From positions 3,240,001 to 3,272,000 of the forward strand of contig NZ_CP147990.1 of NCBI RefSeq assembly GCF_037902255.1: DNA of 32,000 nt, read 5' to 3'. Below are positions 21,902 to 31,438 of this stretch, in pieces. Below the pieces are notes generated by a model. It saw only the letters and a program-made list of their open reading frames with translations. It was not told the origin of the DNA and did no database searches. Source of the DNA: Candidatus Electrothrix sp. GW3-4 (lineage in GTDB: Bacteria; Desulfobacterota; Desulfobulbia; Desulfobulbales; Desulfobulbaceae). Made by a program: the position numbers and the translations under genes. Each line of letters opens with the position of its first letter. The first letter of the stretch is position 1.

Positions 21902-24583
21902 GTGCCCACCAAGACCCCCTCAATCCAACCCGCCGCCCCTAAAATTACCCCCATGCTCCGTCAGTATCTGGAAATCAAGGAGCAGCATCCGGGCACCATC
22001 CTCTTTTATCGGATGGGCGACTTCTACGAGATGTTCTTTGAGGACGCCGAGACCGCCTCGCGGGTGCTGGGTATCACTCTAACCTCACGCAACAAGGGTG
22101 ATAAAAACCAGGTCCCCATGTGTGGAGTGCCCTACCATGCTGTTTCCGGTTACCTGAGTAAAATGGTCAAGGCGGGTTATCGGGTGGCTCTCTGTGAACA
22201 GGCTGAAGATCCCAAAGAGGCCAAGGGTATTGTCCGGCGGGAGGTGGTGCGGGTGGTCAGTCCGGGGGTAACCACGGACGATCAGCTGCTGGACGAGAAG
22301 AGCAACACCTTTGTCTGCGCCCTGACCGCAGCCCGCAAGGGACAGAAGCTGCTCACTATCGGCCTCAGTTTTCTTGATGTCTCCACGGGTAACTTCCTGA
22401 TCAGCGAAATCCCGCTCCAGGAGGCAAACCTGGACCCGGTGATTGACGAAATCACTCGGATGCAACCAGCAGAGCTGCTCCTTGCCGACGAAGAGGCAGA
22501 ATCACTTACCTGGCTCAACGAGACCCTGATCACCCTCATCCCCGGACTCTGTTGCACGGAACGACAGGCATGGTCCTTTGATTACGACACCGCTCTGACC
22601 ACCCTGAATGAGCATTTCAACACCAGCTCCCTGGCAGGATTTGGTTGTCAGGATATGGAAATCGGGATCTGCGCTGCCGGGGCCCTGCTCACCTATATTC
22701 AGGAAACCCAAAAGACCGATCTCTCCTATATTCGTCAGCTCAGCCAGCTCACCCGCTCAGGCTTCCTGATCATTGATGAATCCTCCCGCCGCAACCTGGA
22801 GCTGACCGAGACCATTATCGGCGGCAAGCGCAAGGGCTCGCTCCTCTCGGTCCTGGATCTGACCTCAACGCCGATGGGGGCCCGCCTCCTCCGCCAGCGC
22901 CTCCTCTTCCCCCTTCAGGATGCAGAAAAGATTGAGCAGCGCCTCACCGCCGTAGAGATCCTGCGCAACGATGCCCTTTGCCGCCGGGAGCTCCAGGATC
23001 TGTTGACAGGTATCTATGATATTGAAAGGCTCTGTAGTCGGCTCATCCTGGGGCATGGCAATGCCCGGGACATGGCTGCCCTTAAGCACTCGCTGGGCCA
23101 GTTGCCGGAGCTAAAAAAGCTGCTCATGAATATCTCAGGTGGTCTGCTTCAGGAGATCGGCATGGAGCTGGATCCGCTGTTTGACCTCCACGAGCTGGTC
23201 TATAAGGCCATCCGCGACGATGCGCCAATCACCCTACGCGAGGGACGGTTAATCCGGGAGGGTTTTCACGAAGAATTGGACGAGTTGATCCATCTCCTCC
23301 GGGACGGTAAGCAGCTGATCCTCAATCTGGAGGCCAAGGAACGAGAGCGTACCGGTATTGCCAAGCTCAAGGTGGGTTTCAACAAGGTCTTTGGCTATTA
23401 TTTCGAGGTCAGTCGGGCCCATAAAGGAAAGCTGCCCGAGGACTTTATCCGCAAACAGACCTTGGTCAATGCAGAGCGTTTTATTACGCCTGAGCTTAAG
23501 GAGCTGGAAAACAAGATCTCCACGGCCCAAGAAAAACGCTTGACCCTGGAGTACTCCCTCTTTTTGGAGATTCGGGAAAAGATCGCCTCCCAGAGTGAGC
23601 GCCTGCTGGCCGCAGCCCTTTGTATTGCCCGCACCGACTTCCTGGTCAGTCTGGCCCGGGTCGCAGACCGCTACCAGTATACCCGCCCCTCTATAACGGA
23701 CCAACGCACCATCTCTATTATGGAGGGCCGCCATCCGGTGATCGAACGCTCCCTGGATCCAGGCAGCTTTGTGCCCAATGATGTCTCGCTGGATCAGGAG
23801 GCAAACGAACTCCTCATTATCACCGGTCCCAATATGGCAGGGAAATCCACGGTCCTGCGCCAGACCGCCCTGATTGTCCTGATGGCCCATATCGGCAGCT
23901 TTGTTCCGGCAGACTGGGCCGAGATCGGCATTGTGGATCGCATTTTCACCAGGGTCGGGGCAATGGATGACCTGCGCCGGGGCCAGTCCACCTTTATGGT
24001 GGAGATGAACGAGACCGCCAATATCCTTAATAATGCCACCGAGCATAGCCTGGTGATCCTGGATGAGATCGGGCGCGGCACCTCCACCTATGACGGCCTG
24101 GCTATTGCCTGGGCCGTGGCCGAGGAACTGGCGGACAAGAACGGGCGCGGGGTCAAGACCATGTTCGCCACCCATTATCATGAACTCACCGACCTGGCCA
24201 CTACCCACGAACGGATTCAGAACTACTCTATTGCCGTGCGGGAGCAGGACAACCGCATCCATTTCCTCCATAAACTGGTCCAGGGCGCGGCCAGCCGCAG
24301 CTATGGTATCCAGGTCGCGGCCCTGGCCGGGGTCCCGGACCATGTGGTTGACCGGGCCCAGGAGATCCTCACCAATATCGAGAAAGGTGAGTTCACCGCC
24401 ACCGGGGAACCGACTATTGCGGTTTCCGTGAAGAGAAAACCCCATCCCTGCCAGTTAACACTTTTCCCGCCCAAGGAAGATCCCCTGCGCACCCGCATGA
24501 AAGAAATAGATCCGAATGAACTGACGCCGAGACAGGCGCATGATCTGTTATATGAGTTGATGGAGGTGATGCGGGAGGAGTGA
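21902..24583 (+). CDS. mutS: DNA mismatch repair protein MutS
   Basis: TPMLRQYLEIKEQHP..LFYRMGDFYEMFFEDA, the Walker A GPNMAGKST, and STFMVEM. The start is uncertain: GTG at 21902 is favoured, and the ORF is open from a TTG at 21839. Confidence 0.95.
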   Translation: MPTKTPSIQPAAPKITPMLRQYLEIKEQHPGTILFYRMGDFYEMFFEDAETASRVLGITLTSRNKGDKNQVPMCGVPYHAVSGYLSKMVKAGYRVALCEQAEDPKEAKGIVRREVVRVVSPGVTTDDQLLDEKSNTFVCALTAARKGQKLLTIGLSFLDVSTGNFLISEIPLQEANLDPVIDEITRMQPAELLLADEEAESLTWLNETLITLIPGLCCTERQAWSFDYDTALTTLNEHFNTSSLAGFGCQDMEIGICAAGALLTYIQETQKTDLSYIRQLSQLTRSGFLIIDESSRRNLELTETIIGGKRKGSLLSVLDLTSTPMGARLLRQRLLFPLQDAEKIEQRLTAVEILRNDALCRRELQDLLTGIYDIERLCSRLILGHGNARDMAALKHSLGQLPELKKLLMNISGGLLQEIGMELDPLFDLHELVYKAIRDDAPITLREGRLIREGFHEELDELIHLLRDGKQLILNLEAKERERTGIAKLKVGFNKVFGYYFEVSRAHKGKLPEDFIRKQTLVNAERFITPELKELENKISTAQEKRLTLEYSLFLEIREKIASQSERLLAAALCIARTDFLVSLARVADRYQYTRPSITDQRTISIMEGRHPVIERSLDPGSFVPNDVSLDQEANELLIITGPNMAGKSTVLRQTALIVLMAHIGSFVPADWAEIGIVDRIFTRVGAMDDLRRGQSTFMVEMNETANILNNATEHSLVILDEIGRGTSTYDGLAIAWAVAEELADKNGRGVKTMFATHYHELTDLATTHERIQNYSIAVREQDNRIHFLHKLVQGAASRSYGIQVAALAGVPDHVVDRAQEILTNIEKGEFTATGEPTIAVSVKRKPHPCQLTLFPPKEDPLRTRMKEIDPNELTPRQAHDLLYELMEVMREE

Positions 24584-24620
24584 GAGGTCAATTTATGGGG
24601 CTGTGAAAGAAGAGGCTGCA

Positions 24621-24914
24621 CTACGCCTTTGCTCTCAGGGTGCCGTTAAGGTATTTGTGGACGATGCTGGAGATAAGGGTCTGATAGGGTATACCTTCTT
24701 CGGCAGCCTTTATCTGTATCCGGTAATAGTCCTGTTCCGTGAGCCGGAGATTGATTCTCCTGTCTTTTTTCAGGGTGTTTCGTGCGGCGGCAACAGCTTT
24801 TGTCTTCTCCTGTTCAAGGTCATCGACAGGCTGCCAATCGTCATGCTCGATTGATGCCATCAGCTCTTCTTCTTCCTGATCGATGGGCGCAAACGCCTTT
24901 TTGTTCTTTTTCAT
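24621..24914 (-). CDS. brnA: BrnA-type (CopG/RHH-like) antitoxin
   Basis: ...KKDRRINLRLTEQDYYRIQIKAAEEGIPYQTLISSIVHKYLNG is the typical BrnA C-terminal block. Its start overlaps the stop of the upstream toxin gene. Confidence 0.8.
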   Translation of the reverse strand: MKKNKKAFAPIDQEEEELMASIEHDDWQPVDDLEQEKTKAVAAARNTLKKDRRINLRLTEQDYYRIQIKAAEEGIPYQTLISSIVHKYLNGTLRAKA

Positions 24915-25183
24915 TATTCCCCCTTTAATCCGTATCGTTTTGTATATTTCCGGCTCGGAAAGGCTGTTTTGAGGAATATTTCCCGATCATTTTCCACAAA
25001 AGGCACAACAACGGCGTAGTTGTCGATCTCCAGGATATAGATTTTTTGCTCAGGTCGGGCCGCGTTTTCCTCAATTCCGATGATTTGATCCGATTCAATC
25101 AGATAGGCTATCTCCTCAAAACAGATGCCGCGTTCACGTTTCAGAATTTCGTTTTTTTCAGTGCTCCAATTCAGACATTTCAT
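24914..25183 (-). CDS. brnT: BrnT-family toxin (DUF497-like ribonuclease)
   Basis: 89 aa. W..EKN..L...RGI.FEEI near the N-terminus and VVPFVE....FLKTAFPSRKYTK near the C-terminus. Precedes brnA in the toxin-first order typical of BrnTA. Confidence 0.8.
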   Translation of the reverse strand: MKCLNWSTEKNEILKRERGICFEEIAYLIESDQIIGIEENAARPEQKIYILEIDNYAVVVPFVENDREIFLKTAFPSRKYTKRYGLKGE

Positions 25184-25289
25184 AATTAAAATGTAGCGTT
25201 CTGTCTGCCTTTTGTCAATATAGGTCAGGCACTTCCTGTACCGAGTGCTGCGTACCGGATATGAGAACAGGGAGCGAGCTTGTTTCTGC

Positions 25290-25340
25290 TTCCCAAAGAG
25301 ATGTTGCGGGTTATGTGTCGAGGTGATGCGGCGAGAATGA
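25290..25340 (+). pseudogene. Possible degenerate, internally deleted remnant of the mutS 3' terminus
   Basis: GAGGTGATGCGG (25320-25331) is identical to mutS 24563-24574. A TGA sits at the same offset (+7..+9). The upstream GTTATnTG and TTCCC..AAAGAG resemble mutS GTTATATG and TTCCCGCCCAAGGAAG. The fragment reads FPKRCCGLCVEVMRRE* versus the mutS tail FPPKED...LLYELMEVMREE*. Confidence 0.3.
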
Positions 25341-30917: not shown

Positions 30918-31050
30918 AATAAAGAATCGGCAATTAACTATATACTGTTGGCTGATGCGTCTCCTTTCAGAGCCTTAATTCGACCTCAATGATTCGCGAT
31001 AGAACTTCACCCCACATTGACAAACCCCACTCTGTGGTTACCTTATCATG

Positions 31051-31122
31051 TAAAGGCGGCTGAAAAGTTATTCCTCCAAGAAGACCAAACAAGCATCTGA
31101 TCCCATATTTCAGCCGCCTTTA
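31051..31122. repeat. Perfect 15-bp inverted repeat separated by 42 nt
   Basis: TAAAGGCGGCTGAAA (31051-31065) and TTTCAGCCGCCTTTA (31108-31122). Coordinates are hand-counted and may be off by about 1 nt. Confidence 0.6.
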
Positions 31123-31173
31123 TCTCCTCTTCTCTCATCCCGCAAAAGACACGCTATTTTTTCACGCCCCAGC

Positions 31174-31350
31174 TCAGGAAGCATCAGCTGCCGGATAAAG
31201 AAGCGCAAATACCTTCTTGATCCCTTCCAGCATACCCAGCGTAGGCCGTGACACCAGCTTCTCATCAATCAGAAAGACCTGATTTCCTTGAACAGCCTTG
31301 ATTATCTGAAAGTTCGGTTCCTTACGGATCATCTCCGTGCGGAATCGGTT
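31174..31350 (-). pseudogene. 3' fragment of a periplasmic substrate-binding protein gene (BtuF/FecB-like ABC transporter component)
   Basis: The minus-strand reading NRFRTEMIRKEPNFQIIKAVQGNQVFLIDEKLVSRPTLGMLEGIKKVFALLYPAADAS* resembles the C-terminus of class III binding proteins. It has no start codon and no N-terminal part. Confidence 0.5.
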
Positions 31351-31438
31351 AAAGGAGGTTGACCCGAATGAACTGACGCCGAGGCAGGCGCAGGATCTAC
31401 GCTATGAGCTGGCAGGTCTTTTAGAACAAGAAGAATAA
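31337..31438 (+). pseudogene. Remnant of a mutS 3' end (direct repeat of 24491-24556)
   Basis: Encodes VRNRLKEVDPNELTPRQAQDLRYEL...* versus the mutS tail RTRMKEIDPNELTPRQAHDLLYEL...*. The 20-mer CCGAATGAACTGACGCCGAG is identical at 24512-24531 and 31364-31383. The frame is closed by a TGA at 31307-31309. Confidence 0.75.

Follow-up and report, generated by a model that had tools for sequence, protein, structure and literature searches.

A mosaic mutS gene and a displaced native mutS tail in Candidatus Electrothrix sp. GW3-4, a probable scar of one-sided recombination

The subject of this report is the region downstream of the mismatch-repair gene mutS in the cable bacterium Candidatus Electrothrix sp. 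GW3-4, as contained in a 32,000-nt stretch of its closed genome (the window). Comparison with related genomes indicates that the resident mutS, which is intact, is a chimera with a foreign 3´ end, and that an orphan copy of the mutS end, located beyond a block of largely accessory genes (the island), is the native tail still standing at its original place. The direct repeat formed by the two ends is probably the scar of homology-facilitated illegitimate recombination (HFIR) or of an equivalent one-sided homologous exchange.

The two mutS ends and the donor-like tract

An earlier note on the window, made from the sequence alone, had described a recurrence of the mutS end downstream. The last ~33 codons of mutS do recur at 31337-31438, and repeat finding places them in a direct repeat of 77 nt with 75% identity (24483-24559 and 31335-31411), the second-longest in the window. 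A tblastn search with a consensus Electrothrix MutS tail returned exactly two sites in the window. The exact 20-mer CCGAATGAACTGACGCCGAG, also described in the note, was found only at 24512-24531 and 31364-31383, and it is absent from 100 shuffles with three mismatches permitted. The resident tail (copy 1) ends with ...RTRMKEIDPNELTPRQAHDLLYELMEVMREE and a stop codon, and the downstream copy (copy 2) reads VRNRLKEVDPNELTPRQAQDLRYELAGLLEQEE and a stop codon in frame. Copy 2 is a dead end, as had been claimed, with its reading frame closed upstream by an in-frame TGA at 31307-31309.

The two copies are only distantly alike. Over 99 nt, copy 2 and copy 1 agree at 64% of positions, and identity between copy 2 and the tails of other species is 63-78%, with that of the metagenome contig L102 as the nearest; copy 2 thus differs from copy 1 as much as tails of different species differ from one another. 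An intragenomic duplication of the tail was considered as the origin of copy 2 and was rejected, as copy 2 is closer to the tails of other species than to copy 1. An Arg residue occupies a position in copy 2 (...DLRYEL) at which all other tails have a hydrophobic residue, which fits a relaxed constraint on the orphan. The 20-mer falls in the DELTPRQA-coding block, the most conserved part of 13 aligned Electrothrix tails, and an identical 20-mer is therefore expected without any att function. Tail type follows context: tails with EL(A/V)(G/D)(L/I)L precede a cluster of small genes that includes a 124-aa gene, and tails with ELxEVMREE precede BrnA(T) genes.

GW3-4 is the proposed Ca. Electrothrix antwerpensis, its average nucleotide identity (ANI) to every other Electrothrix species is 77.4-82.3%, and its assembly was built from nanopore reads polished with amplified single-filament Illumina data (PMC11247825). 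Approximately 13 distinct Electrothrix regions downstream of mutS were compared, several of which give <1 kb of downstream sequence. The relatives' contigs are those of E. aestuarii (L081), E. scaldis GW3-3 (L094), Electrothrix sp. ATG2 (L092 and L093), E. communis (L095, a closed genome), Ca. Electrothrix sp. YB6 (L096, CP178758.1) and Ca. E. gigas (L097). A search of genome contigs with MutS gave a best relative of <=64% identity, which is too distant for synteny, and the Electrothrix loci were reached via a protein database and cluster members. E. aestuarii was read to 10 kb downstream of mutS, and the intact transporter operon described below was supplied by E. scaldis GW3-3 and contig L106.

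Empty sites, which the earlier note had predicted, were directly observed in ATG2 (L092 and L093), E. communis (L095) and L102. In ATG2 (L092) the intact mutS ends with ...LLYELAGILEQGG and a stop codon (in a longer form, ...RTRLKEIDPDELTPRQAQDLLYELAGILEQGG), followed by a 64-nt hairpin-bearing spacer and a convergent 125-aa homologue of the 124-aa gene, and window positions 31335-31988 are collinear with the ATG2 contig through tail, hairpin-bearing spacer and gene. The same layout, with an intact mutS running directly to a homologue of the 124-aa family, was observed in E. communis and L102. An empty site is predicted by an integrative-element model and by a recombination model alike. Because the intact mutS of these relatives runs straight into the homologue of 31512-31886, copy 2 (31337-31438) is the native mutS tail in situ, which agrees with its earlier description as a displaced original tail; the ending taken for an intact native GW3-4-type mutS is ...RYELAGLLEQEE.

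The hairpin at ~31455-31490, which the note had also pointed out, is real. It has a 10-bp stem, the intergenic 80-mer folds with a minimum free energy of -23.9 kcal/mol (z = -2.9), and ATG2 has a GAAGCG/CGCTTC stem at the same position. The hairpin was not flagged by a simple terminator scan, the loop rule of which it exceeds; it is probably a terminator shared by the former mutS end and the convergent gene. The 124-aa protein is 100% identical to a GW3-4 protein, exact matches to it came from this strain alone and in the same arrangement, and only five homologues were found among 5.8 billion proteins. In a tandem row of small genes (117, 156 and 124 aa; 31512-32000 and L086 1-1568), all without a family match and with hydrophobic N-termini, the 124-aa gene comes last. 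It is also the first gene of a small paralogous cluster.

The resident mutS changes its affinity within the gene. The maximum chi-square method placed a breakpoint at 23735, with 85.1% identity to E. aestuarii before it and 95.2% after it, a contrast reached in 0 of 500 permutations. In distance matrices for eight Electrothrix genes, the 5´ 1785 nt (21950-23734) of GW3-4 mutS are 82.6-85.1% identical to all seven relatives, whereas for the 3´ 849 nt (23735-24583) identity is 93.6-95.4% with E. aestuarii and E. scaldis GW3-3 but 80.6-84.5% with the five other Electrothrix. The protein shows the same switch, with 90% identity over residues 201-630 and 98-100% over residues 631-914. The stretch immediately left of the 20-mer (24276-24494) shares 95-97% identity with E. 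aestuarii and 69-84% with the others, and donor-level identity continues unbroken from mutS through the 20-mer into BrnA (97-100%). The earlier proposal of a chimeric mutS is thus borne out, and the switch lies ~780 nt upstream of the 20-mer, at ~23735. The resident ORF has the length and the C-terminal tail of the annotated GW3-4 MutS; close relatives have the full set of MutS Pfam domains, and the true mutS start is probably later than 21839.

Between E. aestuarii and E. scaldis GW3-3, mutS identity is 98.1% in the 5´ 1.8 kb and 94.0% in the 3´ 0.85 kb. This drop shows that one of the two species has also exchanged the mutS 3´ end and the adjoining slot, and that the mutS 3´ end acts repeatedly as a recombination anchor.

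The island carries the same affinity. Relative to E. aestuarii, identity is 92% over 25856-26239, 92% over 29051-30920 and 95% over 30913-31340 (L081 21954-22381), and BrnA is 100% identical as a protein and 98-100% identical as DNA. Relative to E. scaldis GW3-3 (L094), 29871-31340 is 93.8% identical. The matching blocks are thus 92-100% identical to E. aestuarii or E. scaldis, against an ANI of <=82.3% and an identity of 72-81% for the flanking core genes of the window.

The right end of the foreign DNA is a truncated chromosomal gene. The island ends with the 3´-terminal ~52 codons of a Peripla_BP_2 substrate-binding-protein gene, which in the donor lineage is the last gene of an operon (cbiK, fecCD, ABC, binding protein). 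Homology to E. aestuarii and E. scaldis ends mid-gene at 31340, and the gene continues in both; it is intact in L081, L094, L095 and L106. A three-way alignment of the window, the donor and the native-type tails defined the joint at 31337-31340, where (G)TGC is common to the donor binding-protein sequence and the native-type mutS tails. Three independent short-read assemblies match 30224-32000, including the joint, with 100% or 99.9% identity, and the right junction is therefore not an assembly artefact. Among Peripla_BP_2 homologues, most of the Electrothrix-like ones are partial and located on ~1-kb contigs; breaks in assembly seem frequent at this gene, perhaps owing to a variable or population-repeated adjacent slot.

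Explanations for the repeat

Under HFIR, the ancestor of GW3-4 would have carried mutS convergent with the 124-aa cluster, in the manner of ATG2 and E. communis. A linear fragment from a cable bacterium similar to E. aestuarii or E. scaldis would have entered with the mutS 3´ third, the accessory genes downstream of it and the last ~160 bp of the binding-protein gene. A homologous crossover would have taken place inside mutS near 23735, and the other end would have been joined illegitimately, at 3-4 nt of microhomology ~100 nt before the recipient mutS stop. Approximately 7.6 kb of donor DNA would thereby have replaced ~750 nt of native mutS, with an intact chimeric mutS, a toxin-antitoxin/caspase-like block (~6.7 kb gained) and an orphan tail beside its own hairpin and neighbour as the outcome. 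The features expected of such an event were found: the donor tract starts inside shared sequence (mutS, ~23735), the (G)TGC at 31337-31340 is a short-microhomology joint of the 3-10 bp kind, and the foreign DNA is above the genome-average similarity to the donor lineage.

Several points weigh against this reading. A joint microhomology of 3-4 nt is weak taken alone. The position of the left breakpoint is uncertain, since the donor signal is strongest from ~24300 and weaker at 24001-24300, where 11 informative sites favour E. aestuarii and 19 do not; the tract may be patchy, or more than one event may have contributed. E. aestuarii and E. scaldis lack the middle of the island (24960-29050), which holds BrnT, a repeat array and the genes for the caspase-like and hydrolase-like proteins; this would imply either a different true donor or later cassette swaps. 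The orphan tail of YB6 also lies within the last 200 nt of mutS and could hint at a site preference. Cable bacteria are not known to undergo natural transformation. Neither the actual donor nor a pre-insertion GW3-4 strain was found among the loci examined, and for this reason we infer, rather than observe, a single event and its direction; the same applies to the route of DNA entry.

A history of several events is an unlikely alternative. In one version, the donor-type segment, from the mutS 3´ end through the binding-protein operon, would have arrived by ordinary double homologous recombination or in a longer insert, and a later illegitimate deletion or rearrangement would have linked the binding-protein gene to what was left of a second, native mutS; in another, a block of mutS tail and 124-aa cluster would itself have been imported later from an ATG2-like donor. 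The mosaic mutS, the truncated binding-protein gene and the orphan tail are equally expected under such a history, and repeated turnover of the slot is visible in the patchy signal at 24001-24300, in the cassette differences among the window, E. aestuarii and E. scaldis, and in the fall from 98.1% to 94.0% between the latter two in the mutS 3´ segment. However, such a history takes more steps than a single event does, a genome with two complete, directly oriented mutS genes would not be stable, and no intermediate was found in the ~13 distinct regions. A single HFIR event and a multi-step history of this kind would leave the same footprints.

A second genome with two mutS tails bears on the remaining readings. 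In YB6 (12647-17344), an orphan MutS_C fragment (Pfam PF27441; annotated as a 45-aa open reading frame (ORF)) is located at 17131-17344, 4.5 kb downstream of mutS, and aligns with the resident YB6 tail over 195 nt at 91% identity. The intervening cargo comprises a gene for a 1272-aa caspase-AAA_16-nSTAND1-FGE-sulfatase protein and a Trypco1 gene, and no recombinase gene was found in this island. GW3-4 and YB6 thus each carry, independently, a caspase-containing insert between mutS and an orphan MutS_C fragment. It is improbable that the mutS 3´ end is a preferred, recurrent capture site for caspase/toxin-antitoxin cassettes in cable bacteria, with a trans-acting recombinase or with the 305-aa protein of the island as a recombination-promoting nuclease, or that the orphan MutS C-terminal peptides are expressed and modulate mismatch repair. 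The orphan peptides (33-68 aa) cover the oligomerisation helix and, in YB6, also part of the clamp-binding motif.

The earlier note had interpreted the island as an integrative element with a surrogate mutS tail and attL/attR repeats, and such a site-specific event, with the 20 nt as core and an integrase lost or acting in trans, now appears very improbable. Direct repeats with an exact 20-mer do surround AT-richer accessory genes, the empty site exists, and YB6 has a caspase-type cassette in the corresponding place. However, the foreign tract begins ~780 nt upstream of the putative core, and this breakpoint position largely refutes the model; the putative core itself is the conserved DELTPRQA-coding block. 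On the right, the island stops within a core gene that the donor lineage has in full. The ends are not conserved, since the start of the orphan lies ~195 nt from the end of the tail alignment in YB6 and ~100 nt ahead of the stop in GW3-4, and the cargo differs as well. Searches with Pfam, PADLOC and NCBIfam found no recombinase match among the ORFs of 24584-31336, in agreement with what the note itself had seen. The note had further suggested a look in other genomes for islands between such repeats with a recombinase. A second tail was found in only 2 of the ~13 distinct regions (GW3-4 and YB6), and the island of YB6, the only other bearer, lacks a recombinase gene; the other ~11 regions have no second tail in the sequence available (<1 kb for several), and a metagenome search with the tail alignment gave eight loci and no further tail duplication.

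A chimeric nanopore assembly, conceivable in view of how the genome was sequenced and polished (PMC11247825), or a dispersed repeat unrelated to mutS, which the note had named as a refutation, is scarcely credible, as the three short-read assemblies cross the joint, the 20-mer occurs twice only and never in shuffles, and copy 2 aligns collinearly with genuine mutS ends in other species.

The island and the variable slot

The features of the region are collected in Table 1.

Table 1. Features at and downstream of mutS in the window (strand: +, forward; -, reverse;., not stranded).
Feature	Position	Strand	Basis or remark
Resident intact mutS, chimeric (native 5´, donor-like 3´)	21839..24583	+	914-aa ORF, the annotated GW3-4 MutS
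Donor-like 3´ third of mutS, putative homologous anchor	23735..24583	+	maximum chi-square
Repeat copy 1, resident donor-type mutS tail	24483..24559	+	includes 20-mer at 24512-24531
BrnA, CopG-type antitoxin	24621..24914	-	Pfam PF12441, weak
BrnT toxin	24914..25183	-	Pfam PF04365, weak
Tandem repeat array, period 84 (21-nt subunits), 2.1 copies	25480..25654	.	between brnT and 158-aa gene
158-aa protein, no family match	25763..26239	+	C-terminal 128 aa common with E. aestuarii (92% nt)
Caspase-like protein, 598 aa	26311..28107	+	Pfam Peptidase_C14 E = 4.8e-6; PADLOC caspase 8e-7
Alpha/beta-hydrolase-like protein, 289 aa, overlaps caspase-like gene	28104..28973	+	
Orphan 5´ end of 305-aa gene (promoter region and first 27 codons)	29051..29175	+	direct repeat
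Phd/YefM antitoxin	29245..29529	+	Pfam PF02604
Truncated VapC, 77 aa	29523..29756	+	PIN N-terminus only, E = 0.072
305-aa protein, no Pfam/NCBIfam match	30000..30917	+	95-96% protein identity to E. aestuarii/E. scaldis
3´-terminal fragment (~52 codons) of Peripla_BP_2 substrate-binding-protein gene	31174..31340	-	homology to L081, L094
Putative illegitimate joint	31337..31340	.	(G)TGC common to donor binding-protein sequence and native-type mutS tails
Repeat copy 2, orphan native mutS tail	31337..31438	+	33 codons and TAA
Hairpin between former mutS end and convergent 124-aa gene	31455..31490	.	folding
124-aa gene, family unassigned, native downstream neighbour of mutS	31512..31886	-	homologues convergent to intact mutS in ATG2, E. 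communis, L102

Two general descriptions of the island in the earlier note held in part. Everything between the repeats had been called accessory, and most of it is; the last ~160 bp (31174-31340) belong to a core ABC-transporter gene. It had also been called AT-richer, which is true of 24584-29050 (42.4% guanine plus cytosine) and not of 29051-31340 (49.1%), which is close to the window mean of 48.8%; mutS itself has 57.0%.

The toxin-antitoxin modules of the cargo are recognisable, the caspase-like matches are weak, with a match to the NCBIfam model caspase_w_EACC1 that falls below its cut-off, and the rest of the cargo is without a family match. The layout of mutS followed by BrnAT also occurs in L098 and L099, and both brnA and brnT are retained in these two and in GW3-4; E. 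aestuarii (L081 12720-13059) has kept an orphan antitoxin BrnA and only ~46 nt of the brnT 3´ end. The array at 25480-25654 is composed of AACAAAGG-rich 21-nt subunits with an internal inverted repeat and partially matches L098. The caspase-like and hydrolase-like genes are specific to GW3-4 in this comparison, with no match in the E. aestuarii or E. scaldis loci.

The Phd/VapC´ module is bracketed by a second direct repeat of 125 nt with 93% identity (29051-29175 and 29955-30079). E. scaldis GW3-3 has an uninterrupted 305-aa gene, a single copy of this repeat and no Phd module, and L084 has Phd with a full-length 144-aa PIN protein beside a 305-aa homologue. The 125-nt repeat looks like the scar of a second one-sided recombination. 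In the arrangement of the E. aestuarii/E. scaldis type, the position of the 305-aa gene next to the binding-protein gene is conserved. The 305-aa product had been taken for a PD-(D/E)XK protein, an assignment that was not confirmed, as nothing convincing was found in Pfam (at a relaxed threshold), NCBIfam or PADLOC.

The slot between mutS and the convergent cbiK transporter operon has a different content in every distinct region examined and ranges in size from ~1 kb in L106, with one small gene, to ~9 kb in E. aestuarii, with an orphan BrnA, a GAF histidine kinase, a different caspase and Phd/VapC´. The slot holds the 233-aa and 305-aa genes in E. scaldis GW3-3, the 124-aa cluster and a group II intron reverse transcriptase in E. 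communis, GmrSD in E. gigas, Uma2 and PDDEXK_2 in L083, and PDDEXK_2 and Phd-PIN in L084. With toxin-antitoxin, caspase, GmrSD, Uma2 or PDDEXK_2 genes as its cargo across Electrothrix, the slot appears to be a hotspot for toxin-antitoxin and caspase-like genes in this genus. The order in E. gigas (L097 12896-17756) is mutS, a GmrSD-type restriction gene, a 297-aa gene and a convergent mutL, which leaves the variable slot of this species between its two mismatch-repair genes.

The region upstream of mutS (21586-21900; L081 7032-9967) is also variable. It measures ~300 bp in GW3-4, and in the relatives its place is taken by a 331-aa gene, an ion-channel gene, RelB/ParE or RelB/PIN modules, or genes for large LRR-Roc-COR proteins; an element of ~95 nt that matches 21617-21711 is present in L081 as two neighbouring copies (9138-9325). 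An IS1634-family transposase gene (18769-20088, reverse strand; NCBIfam equivalog E = 5e-52) with an adjacent ORF (18320-18772) is located ~2 kb upstream of mutS, outside the island, in a stretch of low guanine-plus-cytosine content (40-45%); the equivalent site lacks it in E. aestuarii, E. scaldis and E. communis.

Related systems and implications

Reports of HFIR come from Streptococcus pneumoniae, Acinetobacter baylyi and Pseudomonas stutzeri, and it also occurs at low frequency during conjugation in E. coli; its joints usually lie at 3-10 bp of microhomology, and the recipient DNA between the crossovers is lost (PMC3240628). A further mark of an HFIR product is that linear DNA taken up by the cell is integrated in a RecA-dependent manner. 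The GW3-4 locus resembles these cases in its one homologous anchor (the mutS 3´ third), its illegitimate microhomology joint and the replacement of recipient DNA. It differs in the size of the insert, which at ~7.6 kb exceeds the roughly 1 kb of experimental cases, and in that the event is read from comparative genomics. Orphan 3´ ends and immunity genes are also found in rearrangement hotspot (Rhs), contact-dependent inhibition (CDI) and type VI secretion system (T6SS) loci, and 'sequential displacement' by HFIR has been proposed for Vibrio cholerae (PMC5361080). There too, a module anchored on conserved upstream sequence pushes the old 3´ end downstream as a remnant. In GW3-4, by contrast, the anchor is a housekeeping DNA-repair gene, there is one displacement and no array, and the orphan is without evident function.

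The elements e14 and phage 21 in the E. coli icd gene are integrative elements that target a gene 3´ end and supply a surrogate end. They share with the present locus an intact gene with a foreign 3´ end, a downstream pseudo-copy of the original and an empty site in relatives; here, in contrast, there is no integrase, the boundary is off the shared core, the end is a truncated chromosomal gene, and the boundaries differ between the two duplication-bearing Electrothrix genomes. In enterobacteria, mosaic mutS alleles and a polymorphic mutS-rpoS region were reportedly described by Denamur and colleagues in 2000 as signs of horizontal exchange of mismatch-repair genes. A recombination mosaic and variable DNA beside the mutS 3´ end are common to both cases, whereas Electrothrix belongs to another phylum, the gene content is different, there is no hint of a mutator phase, and the scar is directly visible.

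Defence and accessory hotspots without integrases, located between core genes, exchange their cargo by flanking homologous recombination. The slot between mutS and the cbiK operon is similar in that its cargo differs in nearly every Electrothrix genome examined. The right-hand exchange in GW3-4, unlike that of such hotspots, bypassed the flanking homology, and a scar was left because of this.

The locus is thus a well-resolved new instance of a known process and not a new kind of system: the anchor, the illegitimate joint and the displaced gene end of a one-sided event are all readable from the sequence. For annotation it serves as a warning against calling an integrative element solely from direct repeats of a gene 3´ end that flank AT-rich cargo. 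We know of no gene-transfer mechanism that has been characterised in cable bacteria. The GW3-4 locus implies that Electrothrix species with an ANI of <=82% still exchange multi-kilobase chromosomal segments, and that the mismatch-repair gene mutS is itself a mosaic.

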